Shown: in pieces, positions 1 to 20,000 of the stretch
How positions within the stretch are numbered: position 1 is the first letter of the stretch
How the letters are laid out: every line of letters starts with the position of its first letter
NCBI GenBank assembly: GCA_002256025.1
Contig: NKIB01012576.1
Location: 55,625-75,624 of the forward strand
DNA length: 20,000 bases
Source: Asterionella formosa
Lineage: Eukaryota
Direction of reading: 5' to 3'
Translations under genes and position numbers: made by a program
The notes under the pieces: model-generated
What the model saw: the letters and a program-made list of their open reading frames with translations, nothing else
Database searches by the model: none
What the model was told of the DNA's origin: nothing

Positions 1-640
1 ACCGGGTTCCTACCATATGTGTTATGCACACCGTGAATTTACAGTACCTGGTACGGAGTACCAGGTACCTTCCTTACCTTTCACAAGGAAAACAAGATGC
101 GATAAAACACGGTTTTTGCTACCAGGAAAATAGTGCTAAACTTCTCTCGATCTCTTATATATTGTACATCTTTACAGCGAATACCGTTTTTCAGATTTCT
201 GCAACCGTTATACCCGATAGCTGAAATTAAATACCAGTATGTATACTACCGGTTAATACCTAGCAGGAAATTCCGGGTCCTCCGAGTACCCGGTAGTTAG
301 CAAGTAAGTAAGTAATCAAATGAACGCCCATGCTCATAGTGCCTGATTAATTGTACCAGGTACATGGTACCTACATACGGTTATTAATGTGATACCAGAA
401 TATCCGCTCTTCTTTTAGTTTTTTCAGGGTGGAGTACTAAATATGATTCATTTTTTCCCTTGTACGACCCACTTGCTTGTATACATCTTGCGCATCATCA
501 TGCACCACATGTATACCGGTAATTCCGATAACATGAAAATTTATGTCAATAGACAGTATTTGATGTATATTTGATCGCAAGATCCGCAAGAGTCCATTCT
601 AGCCCAGCTTCGACTCTGTGCTGAAAGACATCCCACCATC

Positions 641-6303: not shown

Positions 6304-6434
6304 ATATTTCGTCCCACTAACCCTACACATAGGCTCCTCAATGGTATCATCGGAGGATGAGGGTTGGGTTTAGGGTTTAGGGTTAAGGTTAGAGCTAGGG
6401 CTACCTGTATGCATAACATAGGGGGACGAAATAT
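6304..6434. repeat. Small inverted-repeat element enclosing telomere-like (T)TTAGGG repeats
   Basis: ATATTTCGTCCC (6304-6315) and GGGACGAAATAT (6423-6434) form a perfect IR, extending imperfectly inward ~30 bp. The interior 6361-6403 reads GGGTTGGGTTTAGGGTTTAGGGTTAAGGTTAGAGCTAGGGCTA. Confidence 0.7.
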
Positions 6435-6524
6435 AGAAAAGATATCTTTTTCCAATACGCACTGGTATAGATACTACCTGTTTACCTGGTAACAGGTATC
6501 TGCTACCGGCAGCATTAAAAAAAA

Positions 6525-6692
6525 GGGTACCAAGGTAGAGTACCGGTACTTGGTACCAGGTACCAGGTACCAGGCTACCAGGTACCGTTATGTCAAGAGT
6601 ATGGTACCAGGTACCTGGTACCAGGTACCTGGTACCAGGTACTAGTACCAGTCAAAAACTGGTACCTGGTACCTGGTACCAGCTACCAGTAC
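6525..6692. repeat. (GGTACCW)n heptamer satellite
   Basis: Tandem GGTACCA/GGTACCT units in three runs, with TACCGGTA, TACTAGTA and TACCAGTA variants. Confidence 0.9.
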
Positions 6693-6867
6693 ATATTACA
6701 TGTCGCTCTGTGATCATGCTCTATACATACCGGCATATCGGTATTACCGGTATGTAGTTCTCTTTCTATCAGCCATCAGAGACGTAAAATCATGGCCTTA
6801 CTATTGGTTGAGCGCTAATTTGCTAAATCAAGTCATTTATTTTTGAAAGAGCTGTCCATTTCTCATA

Positions 6868-7962: not shown

Positions 7963-8646
7963 ATATTATTCTTAGTCCTGGTGTCTGAAAGCCCAATGAC
8001 CAATTTAAAGCCTTCTTTACTGATGCAAAGTTGTATCTTTCTTGATCTGATTCAAACACTTATCAAGAGGGTACATCTGAATGCCAGCTAAATTTCATTC
8101 TGCAATTTTAAGGACAAAAATCAATGAAACCTAGAACTTGGAGCCAATCATATGCACTTGTTGTTTGCATTTTGTTGCCAGTATTGCAAAAATGAATTTC
8201 AAAAACATTAAACCTCAATAGATTCCTTTTTAAGGTTTCATGGCATGCATTCTAAAATATGCCAATAATAGTTGTTTGAGCTTGTTTAGCCTTGACCTCT
8301 GCACCACATACCACGTAAAGGGAATCAGTATATTGCTTCACTGTGTTGCCTTTTGCTGCTGATTACACGACATTTAAAACTGATACCATCAAGATCCTGT
8401 TAATAGGTGGGACCAAACCTGATCAACTGCTTGCCCAACCATAGAGGGCAAGGATTAATAACTCAACAAACCCAAATTTCCATCCACCTCGGAAATGGAG
8501 ATCTTTGGCTGGCATCTTTGCACTTCAGTCGTGTCACATTACTTCGCGCTCCCAGGGGCGTTAAACATTTTCCAAAACCTGCTCATGAAACAATTGCTTG
8601 GTTCATCCATTTTATTCAGCAAGAAAATCTAAGAGGCAGTACAACG

Positions 8647-9786
8647 ATGATGATATCCTTTGGCGCTGCCATCATCCTAGTTATGATCGTTCCATGCACA
8701 CGGGCTAGAAGTGCCTTCCCAAGAGACAACCTACTCAACACGAACACATTGCACCGACTTCAAAGCAAGGCCAGAATTGTTCAAGACGACTTTGACTTTT
8801 TCCGTTCCACGGATGATCTTGGTGAGCACGACGATGACGACGATGATGATAAGGCAACCCTTGTAGAGCTCCCTAGAAACGATGTTTCCTTTGGTAGAAT
8901 CTTTGAAAATAATTTGAAAGTAATACGCGCCGATGAATTGCAGTTATCATTCTCTTCTCCTGCTGTTGGAGTCGCAGCAATAGATTCTCCCATCGCACGC
9001 TCCTTTCGCTCGACAGGTACAACCATTTGTGGCTGCTTGGTCGGACAATTTGTCATTCTAGGTGCAGATACAAGAGCTACAGATGATCGTATGGTGGCGG
9101 ACAAGAGATGTGAAAAGATACACAAATTGGCCAGAAACATGTACGCATGTGGGGCTGGCACTTCGGCCGATTTGGACATGGTGACAAGGCAAGTCGAATA
9201 CAAGCTGCGCCTACAACAACAACAAGAATTGTCAATTGGTAATACTCCAAAACCAGCTTCTAATGAGCCGTCAGTGTCAGGAGCATGTCGTATGCTTCGA
9301 GATACCTTGTTTGAAGGTGGAGGAGAAATCGGGGCCAATTTGATTCTTGGAGGTCACGAGAATGGCAAGGCAGTGTTGGTTGCCATTCATCCTCATGGAA
9401 GTATGGATGTTGTACCATTTAGTGCTCTTGGAAGTGGTGGTCTTGCTGCCATGGCGGTCTTGGAACTAGGATATACTTCAGAGTTGACATTGGAGCAGGG
9501 AAAGGACTTGGTGAAACGAGCAATTATGGCTGGAATCAAAAATGATCTAGGCTCTGGATCTCAAGTAGATTTATTGGTTTTGGGACCAAATGATTTTATA
9601 GACTATCAAAGAGGCGTAATTCCAGAAGAGCAAGGCGAACTAAGGCGGCAAGTGGAAATGATGTCAGATGGGCAAGGGGTCAATGGTTTTGGGAACTCTC
9701 CATACAAGGTTCAGGCTCAAAGAGTCATGCTACCTGTCAAAGAATCAAACACAACCCAAAAGTGGAAGGAACTATTGGATTTCTAA
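8647..9786 (+). CDS. PSMB7: 20S proteasome subunit beta-2 (PUP1/PSMB7 family) with N-terminal signal peptide; probable periplastid-compartment copy
   Basis: RSTG|TTICG (Thr1 at 9019), Asp17 in GADTRAT, Lys33 in ADKRCEK, GAGTSAD, GSGG and AGIKNDLGSGSQVD. First ATG at 8647 (MMISFGAAIILVMIVPCTRARSAFP); the ORF-track start at 8407 is a GTG. Confidence 0.9.
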   Translation: MMISFGAAIILVMIVPCTRARSAFPRDNLLNTNTLHRLQSKARIVQDDFDFFRSTDDLGEHDDDDDDDKATLVELPRNDVSFGRIFENNLKVIRADELQLSFSSPAVGVAAIDSPIARSFRSTGTTICGCLVGQFVILGADTRATDDRMVADKRCEKIHKLARNMYACGAGTSADLDMVTRQVEYKLRLQQQQELSIGNTPKPASNEPSVSGACRMLRDTLFEGGGEIGANLILGGHENGKAVLVAIHPHGSMDVVPFSALGSGGLAAMAVLELGYTSELTLEQGKDLVKRAIMAGIKNDLGSGSQVDLLVLGPNDFIDYQRGVIPEEQGELRRQVEMMSDGQGVNGFGNSPYKVQAQRVMLPVKESNTTQKWKELLDF

Positions 9787-10357
9787 TATTCCAGTACATG
9801 TTAACAAGGGAGCTCAATTATTCTCAGCTTAGATTTAGTAGCAGTTCCAAATTTTCTTCTCATATTTATGTTGCTGAGACATTGTTTCATGAATTGGCCC
9901 AAAGGTTAGCATGGCACAACCTATTTTATTATCAGGACTGTATAATATATAAAATAAAAATGCACATTATGATGAAGTCAATTCTAATAGCGAACTCAGC
10001 TCACAATATCAGTCTGATGTGTCGTGATCAACACCCTGAAAATGGTTTTGGTAGACTTCACTTTTGAATGCTTCAGGTTAACCATTGAAAATGGAAAAAC
10101 TATTTGATGAAGTTGTTTTTTCAATGTAATGGGTTCAATGACTGTACTATAGGAATGCAATGTATTTATCTAGGGCCTTTTTATTGTTGATCGCAGTCAG
10201 GTCAGTGTTGCTGGTGTTGAAAAATGGCGACCTGATGACTGTGGGACAGGAACTCCGGGTACTAACACTGGCACACTAGTTACGAGGAGAGAAGATTCGA
10301 CAGTACCACTTACTTGGTATGAGGTGGCTCCACCAACCATACAGAAGTAGATAAGAC

Positions 10358-10383: not shown

Positions 10384-10570
10384 ATCCAGTTAGTAAGAAC
10401 GAAGTTTGATCCGACTTTCTTCTTACTTTCAATTCAATCAAACATAACCGATTCTTGAAACAATCATAGGTTCAGGGCCTATGGTATGTCAGGGAAAATA
10501 GATTTTGCAACAGCTGGTAAGATTTCCAGGTTTCGGAGGCATTTTAATGCACCGCAATCATGAATTATCT

Positions 10571-10854
10571 GCAAGTTGCGGTCATTATCCTGAAACGGAC
10601 AGTGTGTCATCGGACAGGGGCTAAACGTCGTCAATGCATAGCACGACTCAGCGAAATAAATAACATAATTATTCCCGTTGCAAAAACAAGAGAACACACA
10701 GCATATGACTACCGGTATGCCTTTCAGGAAATTCCTATGAATTTCTTCTACTATTTATTTGGCTCAAAAATCGTCCTATGAATAGGAGACGTCCTTTTTA
10801 TAATGATTAATCGTGCCCTTGTCTGTCCATTTTAGGAAAATGACCGCGACTTGC
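10571..10854. mobile_element. MITE (284 bp) with GCAAGTTGCGGTCATT... terminal inverted repeats, copy A
   Basis: 32-bp TIRs at 10571-10602 and 10823-10854 (4 mismatches), with weaker inverted similarity further in. The interior is homologous to 15380-15490. No TSD visible. Confidence 0.8.
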
Positions 10855-11015
10855 CGGTACACTGGTATATACCCCGGTACCTAGTACCGGTACGTCCGGC
10901 AGTCTACTTATCAATGCTCTGTCGTTGCTTGGTATGGACGGATCGAATGAACGAGCGCGATTTTATCTGTTTTTCCCCTGGTGTGCTTGTGAGAGCCTTT
11001 CAACAACAATTACCA

Positions 11016-13598: not shown

Positions 13599-14300
13599 GT
13601 TTGTTTGTTTGTTTCTGATACGCTCAGCTATGACCGACCTATTAGATGTCAGAGGAAGGTATTGGTCCGGTGTTATCTCAAACGACAAATCGTCATAACT
13701 TATCATGCTTTTGTTTGTATACACAGCAGTATGTAACGAGAAGCGTATACGTAATTCTGTTCGCATATTCAATAGGCACATCACGCAGAAAACATGACAG
13801 TTGCGTTTTCCCAAACGCCAGTGTTCACCGCAGAGTGATGTAACTTCAGCCACGATTGATTTAAAACCATTCTTTGGAGTCTGATCAAATCTGACCTTGC
13901 AAGACTTACCCGTTAAGGCATGTGCCTTTTGTAATAAAATAGGACCAGGACATTTGCATTATTGGGCAATGAAAATTCTACAGTAATTTTGTTCTGTATG
14001 TGTAGCAAGTATGAACAACCGTAAAAACTGTACAGTAAAAAAACCGACTCAGAACCGCGGAGAATCAAACAGAGCGATTCTTCGTAAACTAATCCTCGAT
14101 TGGTTGCTGTCGTCCCGAACTACTCTGAATGCAGTACATACTCGAACCACCTAAATAAACCTGATCCAGAATTCAAATAAGAATATAAACGTGAAACGGT
14201 GTATCGTATAAATATGCTTGACGTGTGACATATGACTGATTATATATACAGATAATTTACATTTTCCAATGCCTGAAAAGCATCCCAACATCCTTTCAAC

Positions 14301-14351
14301 AGGTACCAGGGTCCCAGATACCACCGGTACCAGTACCAGGTACCAGGTACC
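14301..14351. repeat. (GGTACCA)n-type array
   Basis: AGGTACCAGGGTCCCAGATACCACCGGTACCAGTACCAGGTACCAGGTACC. Confidence 0.8.
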
Positions 14352-14676
14352 GAGCGTTCAGCAAGTGAACACGGAATTTTATGTAGTACCAGCACCGGAA
14401 CACTCAACCGGTGTCTACCAATAGTGACAAACCAAAACACAAACGTCTAGTAACAGGGTATACCGGTAGTAAGTATTTAGGGATTGATGGCTAGATTTGA
14501 ATAGTGTTTGGGTTTCTAAATAGTTACTGGTAGTACATCACCTTTGCGAATGTCATTGCAGTCATCAATTACCGCACCCGTTCAAGAGCTAACCGGTCTG
14601 TCCTTCAAACGCATGATACATTTATGTCGAAAATGGTTCACCTGTGCACTCCATTGTCTCAACTTTCAATATTTTT

Positions 14677-14826
14677 AGTACCATAGTACTGTACTCCGTA
14701 TGTAGTCCGGCGAACCTGCAGTACCCTGGTACCAGGTGCCAGGTAACCAGGTACCTGGTACACATCACCTGACCCGTCACAATAACCTGCGACTCCCTGG
14801 TACCGGTACTCCGTACTAACGGTACG
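14677..14826. repeat. Cluster of TA-C(n)G-TA / GGTACCW units
   Basis: TACCATAGTACTGTACTCCGTA, TACCCTGGTACCAGGTGCCAGGTAACCAGGTACCTGGTA and TACCGGTACTCCGTACTAACGGTA. Confidence 0.75.
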
Positions 14827-15345
14827 TGACCACAATGTTATTCCCAGCACATGAAAACCGGTATTACCCACGTTGACGGGGCTTTGTTCGATCGTGTCAT
14901 TGTCCGATAGCACTTCGTTTCATCTACCGGTAGTTGGTGTTGGTATGAATATGCATGTAGGTATACCATACTGAATTGCCAGGTAGAGTTGCGGGAAAAG
15001 ACTAGGTACTTTTACTGGTCAGTTCTTGGTATACCTCAGTGTATGTCGGGCGTATGCTCAACGGGGAAAACCGTTACGTGTAGTCCTGCGAGGTCTGTCA
15101 TATGACATGCAGGCGCCTGGTGCTACCGCCTGTAGAACCAGCGCGCATTTCAATTGTGAGTACGGATGGAGTATCTGAGGGAAAAAGCGCCAAGGGGTTA
15201 GAACAACTGAGCCACGACACAGCGCAAGACAACAACACGCACTCGGGGTGCTTGCACCAGTACTTTACTTGGTTAGCTATTGTCGCATGAGTGCTTCGCT
15301 TATATGCGGTTTTTCACTTTGGCCAGAAAAAATAAATTTGGAGAC

Positions 15346-15643
15346 TTCAGGAAATTCCATACATTTCTTTACGTTTCCTGAAGTTCATAGGAATTTCCTG
15401 AAAGTCATATTCACATGCTGTGTGTTCTCGTTTTGCAATTAGAAGAATTCCGTTAATTATTTCGCTGAATCATGGTATGAATAGAAGATGTTCTTTACAT
15501 ATATATATGTAAAATATGTTGCTGTTCAGTAACACATTGTTTGTTACAACAACCAGATGCAGTGGTCATTTTCCTTAAATGAACAATTTAATATGATATA
15601 AAAAGAGCTGAATCTTCATTTGATTAAAATTACCGCAACTTGC
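15346..15643 (-). mobile_element. Diverged/rearranged copy B of the GCAAG-TIR MITE
   Basis: 15380-15490 aligns with the reverse complement of ~10625-10745. TIR end AAAATTACCGCAACTTGC at 15626-15643 and an extra TIR-like piece at ~15560-15585. Left boundary uncertain. Confidence 0.7.
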
Positions 15644-15684
15644 AGGCGTGTCCATTGCTTACAACGCTGGAAAATAACTCGTGA

Positions 15685-15912: not shown

Positions 15913-16310
15913 GAAAAACCTACCAATATTCAGTGGTTCAAATCTTTGATCAAAGAACATTTTACCAGACAGGAACTTGGCATTCTACTACATAAACATT
16001 TGGGTGGCTGTGTGGTGTGGTTGGGGAGATGATAAGACAGCAGGTCGATACTTAGAAGCGGGCATGGAAGATTTTATGAAAGTTATGAATCTATGGTTGG
16101 GAAGATGCTAAATTTTGTAGAGATGATCGGCCCAGTAGGTGCCAACGCATGTTGCGAACTATTACATCACATAGAAAATCCGGGCGAGGCTCAATGGAAT
16201 GCTGTAAAAGATTGCTTGGATACATTTCAATGGGTTTTTTCATCGGAAGCTGAAAATGAGACTACCTCGAACAATGAGAGTTCAAGACATTGTGGATAGT
16301 TCATTTGGTA
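15904..16310 (+). pseudogene. Ty1/copia (CoDi-like) reverse transcriptase C-terminus and start of RNase H, frameshifted
   Basis: KP..IQWFKSLIKEHFT.QELG.L.KHLG / WGDD..GRYLE..MEDF / YESMVGKMLNFV..IGPVGANACCEL..HIENPGEAQWNAVK / KLKMRLP..RVQDIVDSSF. Confidence 0.8.
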
Positions 16311-16525
16311 GGGAAATGGCTTAATTGGTTTGTATACCTCAAGAGGTGGCAGGTTTGATTACTGCATTCTTCACCTGTCTTTTTTTAATGTTGTCCCAAG
16401 GCTTCTGAGGGGTGCGTACTAAGACTGACAAAGATAAAGGTCCCGTTCTACTGTATGGACACATAAAACTAGTACTAATTGTTTCCATTCAAGTGGGCAT
16501 AAGTGCAATTATTGGATAGCTTTAA

Positions 16526-17729
16526 GGTTGCTGCATTTGAAACCCTAGGCAAAAATTAAAATATTGCTTAGGGTTGCCAAAATTCCCTGGAATTAAGAAT
16601 TTAATTAGCTATTTTTGAATGACGTGATTCCATTTGAAATATTTAAATCAGTGGAAATCTGCGAATACGTACATAGATTCCTTGTCGAAATCGCTAAATA
16701 TATATATAGGCACTCTTAGTCGCTGTATGTATATATACTCCGATTAACGATTTTATATGCTATGCATTGAATCCGTTCGAAATATTCAAATCGTTTAATA
16801 TAGATACCAGTATACATATTTAGATTCTACATCCCTTCATGTGCATACACCAGTACTACAATCCATACTCCGATCGACGACTATGGGTAAAGTATACGAC
16901 CCGGCGGCTCAGCAGCTCGGCAAATATTTGAAAGTGCACTCAAGGAGCGGTACGCTTATGTCCAATGATGATCATCAACTGGTACCAGGTACCCGTCGTG
17001 AATATAGCACCGGTCTGTCAGTACACCCAAGAAAATGTTACATGTTTATCCAATGTGGCCGGTGTGGGTTTGCAAGACCTCGCAAACCAGGCCAATCAAA
17101 CAGAGGAATGTAATTCACATTCACCAATCATATTATATATGTGGAAGCGGGCACTTACAATGGAACTTTTTGGACAGGAGATTTTGGGACTTAAAATTCC
17201 GGCACACGACTACCATTCCGATGATGACGTTTCGGCACTAAATAATTCTGATTCCGATATTTTGGCGACTGTAGAAAAGGCCGATTTTGTCAAGTTTTTG
17301 GACGACGATAGCTAAACGTTGGCTGGGTCTGACGGCGATTTAGATACATACCGGTAGGCAACTTTCAAATAGCATCAGTATGTAACTTCTGGCGAGAAAC
17401 TGCAGAACAAAGGAACTTCGTTTTTTTTACTTTGCCAAATAAACAGATTTCCCCGAAATTTTCGAGTCTTTTTAGCCAAGTTTAAAAAACCGAAGTTCCT
17501 TTCTGCAGTTTCTGACCAGATCCTATATACTGACGATATATAGAGTGGACCTACAACCCTACTTTGTCCGAAGACTGTATGTAAGCATATGGAAAGGGTG
17601 TGTATTGGTGAAAGTTTCGTTGAGCGTTATACATATTTAATTTGTATGTGAAAAGTATGTGTTTGATTAGTCTGACTGAATATTATTTTATTAACCCTAC
17701 CTCGAGCTAGGGATTCAAATGCAGCAACC
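16526..17729. mobile_element. Non-autonomous DNA transposon, 1204 bp, TTAA TSD, GG...CC termini (Kolobok-like)
   Basis: TIR GGTTGCTGCATTTGAAACCCTAG (16526-16548) versus the reverse complement of 17707-17729 matches 22/23. TTAA at 16522-16525 and 17730-17733. Confidence 0.8.
17357..17551. mobile_element. Fold-back MITE (~195 bp) flanked by TA
   Basis: Long inverted arms (TCAGTAT..TCTGG..AGAAACTGCAGAA..AGGAACTTCG.TTTTTT and its reverse complement at ~17470-17533) around a ~25-bp centre. TA at 17355-17356 and 17552-17553. Confidence 0.78.
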
Positions 17730-17754
17730 TTAAAATACAATAAAAATTTAATTA

Positions 17755-17955
17755 ACATTTTTGGATAGTTCATTCAGTGACAATCCTGACACTCAGGAAG
17801 TCAACAAGTGCCTGCATGGGAACAATTTGGTTCTCTTTTGATTAATTGGATTTCAAAAGGTCAGCCAATTGTGGCAGTATTGAGCACTGCAGATGAATAT
17901 GTGGCTTTATCGGAAGGATCTAAAAAAACAACCTGTATTACAAATCTACTTAACT
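17755..17955 (+). pseudogene. Ty1/copia RNase H fragment (continuation of 15904-16310)
   Basis: LDSSFSDNPDT/RKSTS../GSLLINWISKGQPIVAVLSTADEYVALSEGSKK...ITNLL, with two frameshifts. Matches copia DSD.A..D.RKSTSG...W.SK.Q..VALST.EAEY.AL. Confidence 0.85.
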
Positions 17956-18204
17956 GTTAAACGATTTCTTAACAGCTGCCGAGTCGGGGAATATTTGTCG
18001 GTTTTGGGAACGAGTACAGTACGAGAATAAGCAAAATTACCGCAACTTGCTGGTTCTGTAGACCTACATGATATTGCATCTATTTCAAATGTACAGGTAC
18101 TAAAATATAAGAATATTTTCGACTCCTGTTCCGTTCCTAAATTCCATCCTCGCTCATGGCTCGATGCAATAGCTGCGACTAGCTAGTCTACTTCACTTTC
18201 AAGA

Positions 18205-18941: not shown

Positions 18942-20000
18942 GCAAAACGTACCGACGTTTCAGATGAGGTACTATTAAACCAGTTGCGTTCCACTAATAG
19001 CAACCAACCAAGACCAGAATCAGCACCGAATGCAATGCAACTCTATGGGATGTGATCTCGTCTCAATTATACTGATCAACTCATGTGAACTCTCCAAAAT
19101 ATAGTTAAAAGAGGAATATAAAAATGTCCTCATGGCTGAGTCGGTAACCTTTTTTGATGGCAAGGTTGTAGAGAATGGTTGTAGATTGCTGTACATGCCA
19201 TGATTCAAAGACAATGAGTGAGCGAGTTGATGAAGTCTAAAGTTTATGAAGTGGAGAAATGGTGGGAGTATCAGCACTACCATCAGCCAGGCACTGTAGA
19301 TGTTTCAATGTAGCGAACATGATGAAGTATTAGACTAGACTACTGGTATTCATCTTCCTGGTGATATTGTACCCATTCAAAGCCTCAGAGTATAGTGGTA
19401 CATTACTACTGGTATGTTTGTGTTCAAAAAATCTTTAACTATATGAACTTTTATGTGTCAACTATAGCAGGCTGTTGAGTCCCTGCTATAGATTAATATT
19501 TATGTGAAAAGGTAGTCTCCTGGCTTGCTTCATCAGATCAGGAGGAACACAGATGAACCTTGCCTCAAAAGTACAAAAAGCAATTCATTTCAGGAATGTG
19601 TTGGAATTAACATGTTTCAAACAAAAAACACAGGAGGTCACTCTTTTTATGACAAGAAAAAAGTGAAATACAGCCACACTTGTTGGCAAAGAAGGAACAT
19701 TACAAGTACTACCAGTACTCAAGTGTCACTGCTGACCAAGGACTAATAGTAGGCTAGTGTTACTGGAGCATCAGCTGATCATGTTGTAATTAGGACTTGA
19801 GCTCTAGAAATACTGGTTATGATTGTTTCCATCTTTTGATTTTTTGCAGTAGACTGCAATCACATTTTTGCTGCATCTAAGCCGCGTATTACGTGAAGTG
19901 ACCATCACATAAATAAGCCTAGTTGATTTTGAATGCATCACATGAATTAGTTGAATACATCAAAATACGTAGTTGAATATATCTATATATTATCTGAATA

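Follow-up and report, generated by a model that had tools for sequence, protein, structure and literature searches.

The TACCGGTA-type words of the window, by which we mean the whole stretch of 20,000 nucleotides analysed here, are best read as micro-insertions at TA left by an insertion and excision process, as a sequence-only reading of this DNA had proposed. Support for this comes from gains at a repeat site at 17350, from orthologous loci in which the same bases were gained at two different TAs, from mini-MITEs that differ by such units and from MITE ends with abutting scars. For the word at 10710-10717, we regard as fairly probable an origin as the excision footprint of a cut-and-paste element of the IS630/Tc1/mariner type, with the MITE family of copy A as the likeliest source.

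A filled and an empty site in two related repeats

The word at 10710 lies inside a repeat, copy A, whose homologous block in copy B was located by BLAST (Table 1). Read directly, copy A at 10707-10720 is GAC-TA-CCGG-TA-TGC, and copy B around 15408-15409 is, as the reverse complement, GAA-TA-TGA. Over a wider span, site A (10690-10745, forward strand) reads GAGAACACACAGCATATGAC-TA-CCGGTA-TGCCTTTCAGGAAATTCCTATGAA, and site B (reverse complement of 15380-15429, with the TA at 15408-15409) reads GAGAACACACAGCATGTGAA-TA-TGACTTTCAGGAAATTCCTATGAA. The two sites are identical at 47 of the 50 bases aligned in this block, and the sole indel consists of the 6 bases, CCGGTA or equally TACCGG, that convert TA into TACCGGTA. 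The earlier claim of a filled site (TA-CCGG-TA) in A and an empty one (TA) in B is therefore borne out by the sequence. That this is the only indel holds within the quoted block and fails in a longer alignment (A 10540-10900 against B 15660-15300), where B has a 3-base gap and about 23 and about 75 additional bases. The description of both repeats as MITE copies likewise stands for A, a clean TIR-bounded and TA-flanked element, and not for B, which is not a clean MITE copy.

Copy A is short and non-coding (no ORF), has TIRs at 10571-10588 and 10837-10854 with one mismatch each to the 18-base pattern, and carries a TA target-site duplication, as a Stowaway-like MITE should. Four copies of the 18-base TIR are present in the window, at 10571 (+), 10837 (-), 15626 (-) and 18033 (-), against 0.04 expected. 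Copy B shares the left TIR with copy A and begins with this TIR preceded by CCT, followed by a mini-MITE-like piece of about 95 bp, the flanks of which are not TA, and then by the block collinear with the interior of A; the TIR-like piece is either nested or additional, and copy B has no recognisable right end and no TA flanks.

Table 1 Features of the window, with positions counted from its first letter
Feature	Position	Strand	Basis or remark
Two TACCWGGTA words, 5 nt between	45..67		Word counts
TA-CC(N)GG-TA words, largest cluster, with 7-bp runs (GGTACCW)n	6483..6752		Word counts
MITE copy A, 290 bp: TA(10566-7)/TCT-GCAAGTTGCGGTCATT...AATGACCGCGACTTGC-CGG/TA(10858-9)	10568..10857	+	TIRs, TA flanks
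Copy A block homologous to copy B	10624..10745	+	BLAST, 122 nt, 77%
Filled site, TACCGGTA within MITE copy A	10710..10717		Extra bases CCGGTA 10712-10717 or equally TACCGG 10710-10715
Scar-like stack abutting the right end of MITE A: CGG-TA-CACTGG-TA-TA-TA-CCCCGG-TA-CCTAG-TA-CCGG-TA	10855..10892		Sequence reading
Further clusters and isolated words (14300-14351, 14725-14808, 14461, 14925)	14300..14932		Word counts
Copy B block homologous to copy A	15380..15492	-	BLAST match to 10624-10745
Empty site, single TA, homologous place in copy B	15408..15409		A/B alignment
Mini-MITE-like piece heading copy B	15553..15646	-	Exact TIR 15626-15643, preceded by CCT 15644-15646; degenerate second TIR ending CTGG at 15553
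Second filled site, TACCGGTA in a high-copy repeat	17349..17356		Other copies: TA, then directly the downstream sequence
Further end of this TIR family, CCA followed by an exact 18-mer	18033..18053	-	Flank AA, not TA

From the two copies found, we infer that CCGGTA was gained in A rather than deleted from B. Three 11-base anchors for a third copy of the A/B repeat had no match in 54 metagenome loci, a relaxed BLAST search returned only a 29-nt match of 83% in L049, too diverged across the TA, and a 20-base anchor gave one unrelated bacterial match in genome_contigs and none in viral_contigs. Of the indels in contigs of sequencing runs X1, X5, X7 and X8, none of the 12 listed falls at 10710 or 15408. 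These contigs do not bridge the repeat: among the pieces listed, the longest of X5 and X7 break off near 10243-10244 and start again at 10769-10817, and the target site is crossed by none of X8.

Putative scar words are enriched and lie outside supported genes

The word TACCGGTA occurs 12 times in the window against 0.10 expected, a count reached by none of 200 shuffles. TACCWGGTA (18 occurrences, 0.10 expected) and TACCAGTA (12 occurrences, 0.48 expected) likewise exceeded every shuffle, and in a census of TA-X-TA words across the window the three most enriched forms of X were CCWGG, CCGG and CCAG/CTGG. The outer flanks of these scar words are variable and the TA boundary is constant. None of the 42 scar words falls in the Pfam-supported ORF spans, which cover 5,763 of the 20,000 bases, the words being clustered and not 42 independent trials. 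Two other classes, TA-GC-TA (11 against 3.2 expected) and TA-CA/TG-TA (29 against 12.1 expected), are also enriched in the window and may be scars of other element families.

The window itself looks like compact diatom nuclear DNA. Its ORFs match DUF6824, DUF6816, a proteasome subunit, a histidine phosphatase, Alg14 and MORN repeats, of which DUF6824 and DUF6816 are presumably diatom-associated families, and its GC content is 37-47%. In the ORF at 8407-9786 the proteasome-subunit domain (residues 202-391) is preceded by about 200 residues, which may form a putative N-terminal extension. Adjoining the largest scar cluster, an inverted repeat of about 130 nt (6304-6434, arms matching at 15 of 16 positions) surrounds TTAGGG/TTTAGGG runs at 6360-6403, an interstitial telomeric tract within a hairpin-like element.

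Gains at TA in other repeats and in orthologous loci

At the second filled site the window reads TA-CCGGTA-GGCAACTTTC (17349-17356). Contigs that agree with the window as far as 17350 and run on from there, without CCGGTA, into the sequence after 17356 number 53 in run X1 (agreement 0.85), 4 in X5 and 4 in X7, and the continuation of the empty contigs, read by eye, matches the window sequence after 17356 in 28 of 30 letters. The region around 17349 stands at approximately 600-1000x single-copy depth in X1, indicating that the empty contigs at 17350 are other copies of a high-copy repeat. This region also holds a 1.2-kb element (16520-17735) with perfect 16-base TIRs (TTTAAGGTTGCTGCAT); the same depth of about 600-1000x in X1 is found around it, as well as at 16009-18009 and 19344-20000, and X1 and X7 contigs join 16525 to 17743.

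The orthologous metagenome loci L013, L050 and L026, which may derive from related species rather than from the window's own, are 94-97% identical over 1.3-1.9 kb. Across 1,350 shared columns they differ by 57 substitution columns and 10 gap blocks, and 6 of the 10 gap blocks involve CC(N)GG-TA units. Relative to its orthologues, L026 has a clean 6-bp fill that turns TA into TACCGGTA and, at a TA inside its mini-MITE, a clean 13-bp fill of CCAGGTA plus CCGGTA. In one case the loci differ in which of two TAs, 4 bp apart, is followed by CCGGTA, L050 and L013 having it at one and L026 at the other; its removal leaves one identical 54-base sequence in all three loci, a pattern that deletions from a filled ancestor cannot explain. 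Four independent mini-MITE copies (L001, L002, L023 and L025) are empty where L013 and L026 carry units. The other 4 gap blocks are indels of exactly 5 bp unrelated to CC(N)GG words, two tandem duplications (GTAGA and CATCT) among them, and may represent a second stereotyped indel class.

A TA-bounded insertion whose empty state is a single TA, the form expected of an IS630/Tc1/mariner footprint, was found in A against B, at 17349 and in L026 against L050 and L013. These comparisons bear on the direction of the change at 10710. It could be supposed that the ancestor of A and B already carried TACCGGTA as an older scar and that a precise deletion between the TA repeats then removed CCGGTA from B; the A/B indel has no outgroup and is seen in two copies only, deletions at two-base microhomology are common, and at 77% identity the two repeats are old enough for either event. 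We nevertheless consider such a loss unlikely, since the filled state is the derived one wherever an outgroup exists (17350, the mini-MITE family and the two-TA case) and a more than 100-fold excess of words needs a process of net gain.

A candidate source family with matching ends

A scan of metagenome contigs for the TIR returned 54 loci, about 19 of them of diatom type, which may belong to related species; about 35 were chance matches in bacterial-looking contigs and were left out by eye on the basis of GC content, missing motif and flanks. Counts of TIR ends and of word density omit L050, L026 and L044, which are orthologues of L013 and L018. The family is multi-copy, with four TIRs in the window, the roughly 19 of 54 metagenome loci and an X1 depth of 3-60x single-copy in the bins that hold it. 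Its ends follow the pattern CCN-GCAAGTTGCGGT(A/C)ATTTT. Upstream of the core GCAAG, 16 of 27 TIR matches (2 of the 27 probably spurious) are preceded by CCA (7), CCT (6) or CCG (3); a TA lies exactly 3 nt upstream in 11 of these 27 matches, again counting the 2 probably spurious ones, and is absent at 7 of the 16 CCN ends.

Eight elements are complete, namely copy A of the window and those in L001, L002, L003, L013, L023, L025 and L035. Their right ends are AGG, TGG, CGG or a near variant, and TA stands directly outside 10 of their 16 ends, on both sides in 3 of the 8; it is absent at 6 of the 16, which sequence decay of about 20%, as between A and B, would account for. The starts in CCA, CCT or CCG, the ends in AGG, TGG or CGG and the TA flanks point to a putative TA-targeting MITE whose ends would spell both halves of the scars. 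The bases held between the TAs are accordingly the terminal bases of an element that is present, and both end types (CCG and CCW) occur together with both scar types (CCGG and CCWGG).

Scar words are also concentrated at the outer side of these ends. Their density is 20.0 per kb within 0-50 nt of a TIR end, falls through 9.8, 6.0, 3.4 and 0.2, and is 2.1 per kb beyond 800 nt, these being raw figures from 14 loci and the window for words that are clustered and in non-coding DNA. Units abut the element end in phase (...TA-CCWGG-TA-CCW/GCAAG) in several independent loci, namely L003, L013, L025, L038, L042, L043 and copy A of the window, and joints in contigs of run X1 (15646 to 6610, and 18052 to 6560 and 6658) show the same adjacency of array and end at other places. 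At about 376-413 in L003, two MITE ends point towards each other, and the 19 bases between them are scar units only (...CAACTTGC-ATAG-CGG-TA-CCAGG-TA-CCA-GCAAG...).

The third base of the ends complicates this picture. In 6 of the 8 complete elements both ends carry the same top-strand letter there (A/A in four, T/T in two), where a perfect TIR would have inverted complements, and this counts against a simple footprint reading. Either complementarity of the overhang tips is maintained, or the element ends at GCAAG inside pre-existing CCWGG words. Under the second of these, the palindromes would be targets, with an element running from GCAAG to CTTGC that inserts in the middle of CCWGG or CCGG, duplicates 1-2 bases and finds words made by another source. 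The agreement of the base beside GCAAG with that beside CTTGC in 6 of 8 elements fits such targeting, as do the variable third base (A 7, T 6, G 3) next to 18 constant bases and the presence of TA before CCN at 9 of 16 ends, little different from the background in the window, where 23 in 60 CCWGG words have TA on the left. It is nonetheless improbable in our judgement. It requires that another source, not itself seen, should likewise have CC..GG ends, and we know of no transposon superfamily that makes a 1-bp duplication. Of the 6 complete elements associated with arrays, 4 are abutted by an array on one side only, an arrangement to be expected seldom if elements inserted into arrays at random. 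The missing TAs are also explained by about 20% decay, and 6 of 8 is not significant against an even chance.

The generic TIR scan of the window, its output swamped by the arrays, gave no further element with TA/CC ends, and none of the 16 window ORFs scanned had a transposase domain. A gene downstream of a TIR in L042, considered as the transposase of an autonomous element, encodes an LRR protein and was rejected. Neither the X-run matches listed nor the metagenome loci of the TIR scan included a locus at which one allele carries the MITE and another a scar.

Proposed mechanism and its consequences

Excision sites of Mariner/Stowaway elements, according to PMC4561436, retain target-site duplications and short pieces of the element ends because the transposase cuts inside the element on one strand, cleavage being staggered within the element. 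On this model, an element would have inserted at the TA still seen in copy B, duplicating it, and would have been mobilised in trans, as a Stowaway MITE is. A later excision by staggered cuts inside the element's own ends, followed by host end-joining across the gap, would leave TA, CC, GG and TA, and the scar at 10710 would be the trace of one element's visit to the interior of MITE A. Three-base overhangs of CCA or CCT joined with a one-base overlap would give TACCWGGTA, and CCG overhangs paired over two bases would give TACCGGTA. Repeated many times, the process could account for the TACCGGTA, TACCWGGTA and TACCAGTA words of the window's non-coding DNA and for its (GGTACCW)n runs, re-insertion into the TA of a fresh scar would stack units beside the element, and slippage may add to the arrays. 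We infer from the words and ends the excision itself, its stagger length and an acting transposase.

A stronger version of this model, which we put forward tentatively and would not expect to hold in full, is that the MITE family walks: it would re-insert into its own fresh scar and leave a one-sided trail of 6-7-bp units that becomes the abutting (GGTACCW)n minisatellite, with third bases that co-vary so that the overhang tips pair and the donor seals cleanly. If so, scars rather than point mutation or slippage would be a main source of indel variation in the promoters of this diatom.

That no transposon took part, the words having been spread by slippage or conversion from (GGTACCW)n arrays or kept as sites of a factor recognising GTAC or CCGG, is very improbable: the words do lie in intergenic, promoter-like DNA, and array unit number does differ by 7 bp between orthologous loci, a change inside arrays that could be slippage, but copy B and the other empty sites hold a TA only, with no unit to slip on, the outer flanks vary around a constant TA boundary, and presence or absence differs between loci that are 94-97% identical, unlike conserved sites.

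If the excision-footprint reading is true, one small cut-and-paste family wrote thousands of identical 6-7-base scars into the intergenic DNA of this freshwater diatom, and the writing would still be going on, since near-identical populations differ by scars. The words would then form a readable record of transposon traffic, offer a simple explanation for GGTACC-rich tracts and represent a steady source of promoter indels. They would also be a caution against taking over-represented palindromes as regulatory motifs.

Comparison with known systems

The canonical footprint of Sleeping Beauty is TAC(A/T)GTA, and the footprints of Tc1 and Tc3 are TA-CA-TG-TA. The logic proposed here is the same as in these systems, with 2-3-nt 3′ overhangs joined between TAs and an ambiguous central A/T at the tips. 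The difference lies in the letters, which here are CC/GG and not CA/TG, and the two classes CCGG and CCWGG fit the end variants CCG and CCW. Slippage in minisatellites and microsatellites likewise yields 7-bp differences in unit number in (GGTACCW)n runs, but slippage has no means of generating CCGG de novo at a lone TA, which is the situation at 10710, at 17349 and at the ortholog sites.

Footprints of hAT elements (Ac/Ds) likewise leave a short palindromic sequence at the donor site (PMC4561436). In hAT footprints the palindromes copy flanking DNA via hairpins and are associated with 8-bp TSDs (PMC4561436), whereas the insertions described here combine variable flanks with constant bases that match element ends.

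The closest likeness is to Mariner-like and Stowaway elements, which are similarly non-coding, TIR-bounded and TA-flanked, and whose footprints (rice OsMar/14T32; PMC4561436) similarly have a TA duplication on both sides with a few element-end bases between. Compared with plant Stowaway, the family described here has ends in CCN-GCAAG, a far higher density of words (42 in 20 kb), 7-bp runs stacked on element ends and a source transposase that is only putative. A limited literature search, which is no proof of absence, found no account of scars as dense as these, or stacked in this way, in diatoms. The mechanism is an ordinary one, of the Tc1/mariner/Stowaway footprint type, and it is the density of the scars and their stacking on element ends that are unusual. 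New from this window are a candidate source family within the window itself and the evidence across populations.
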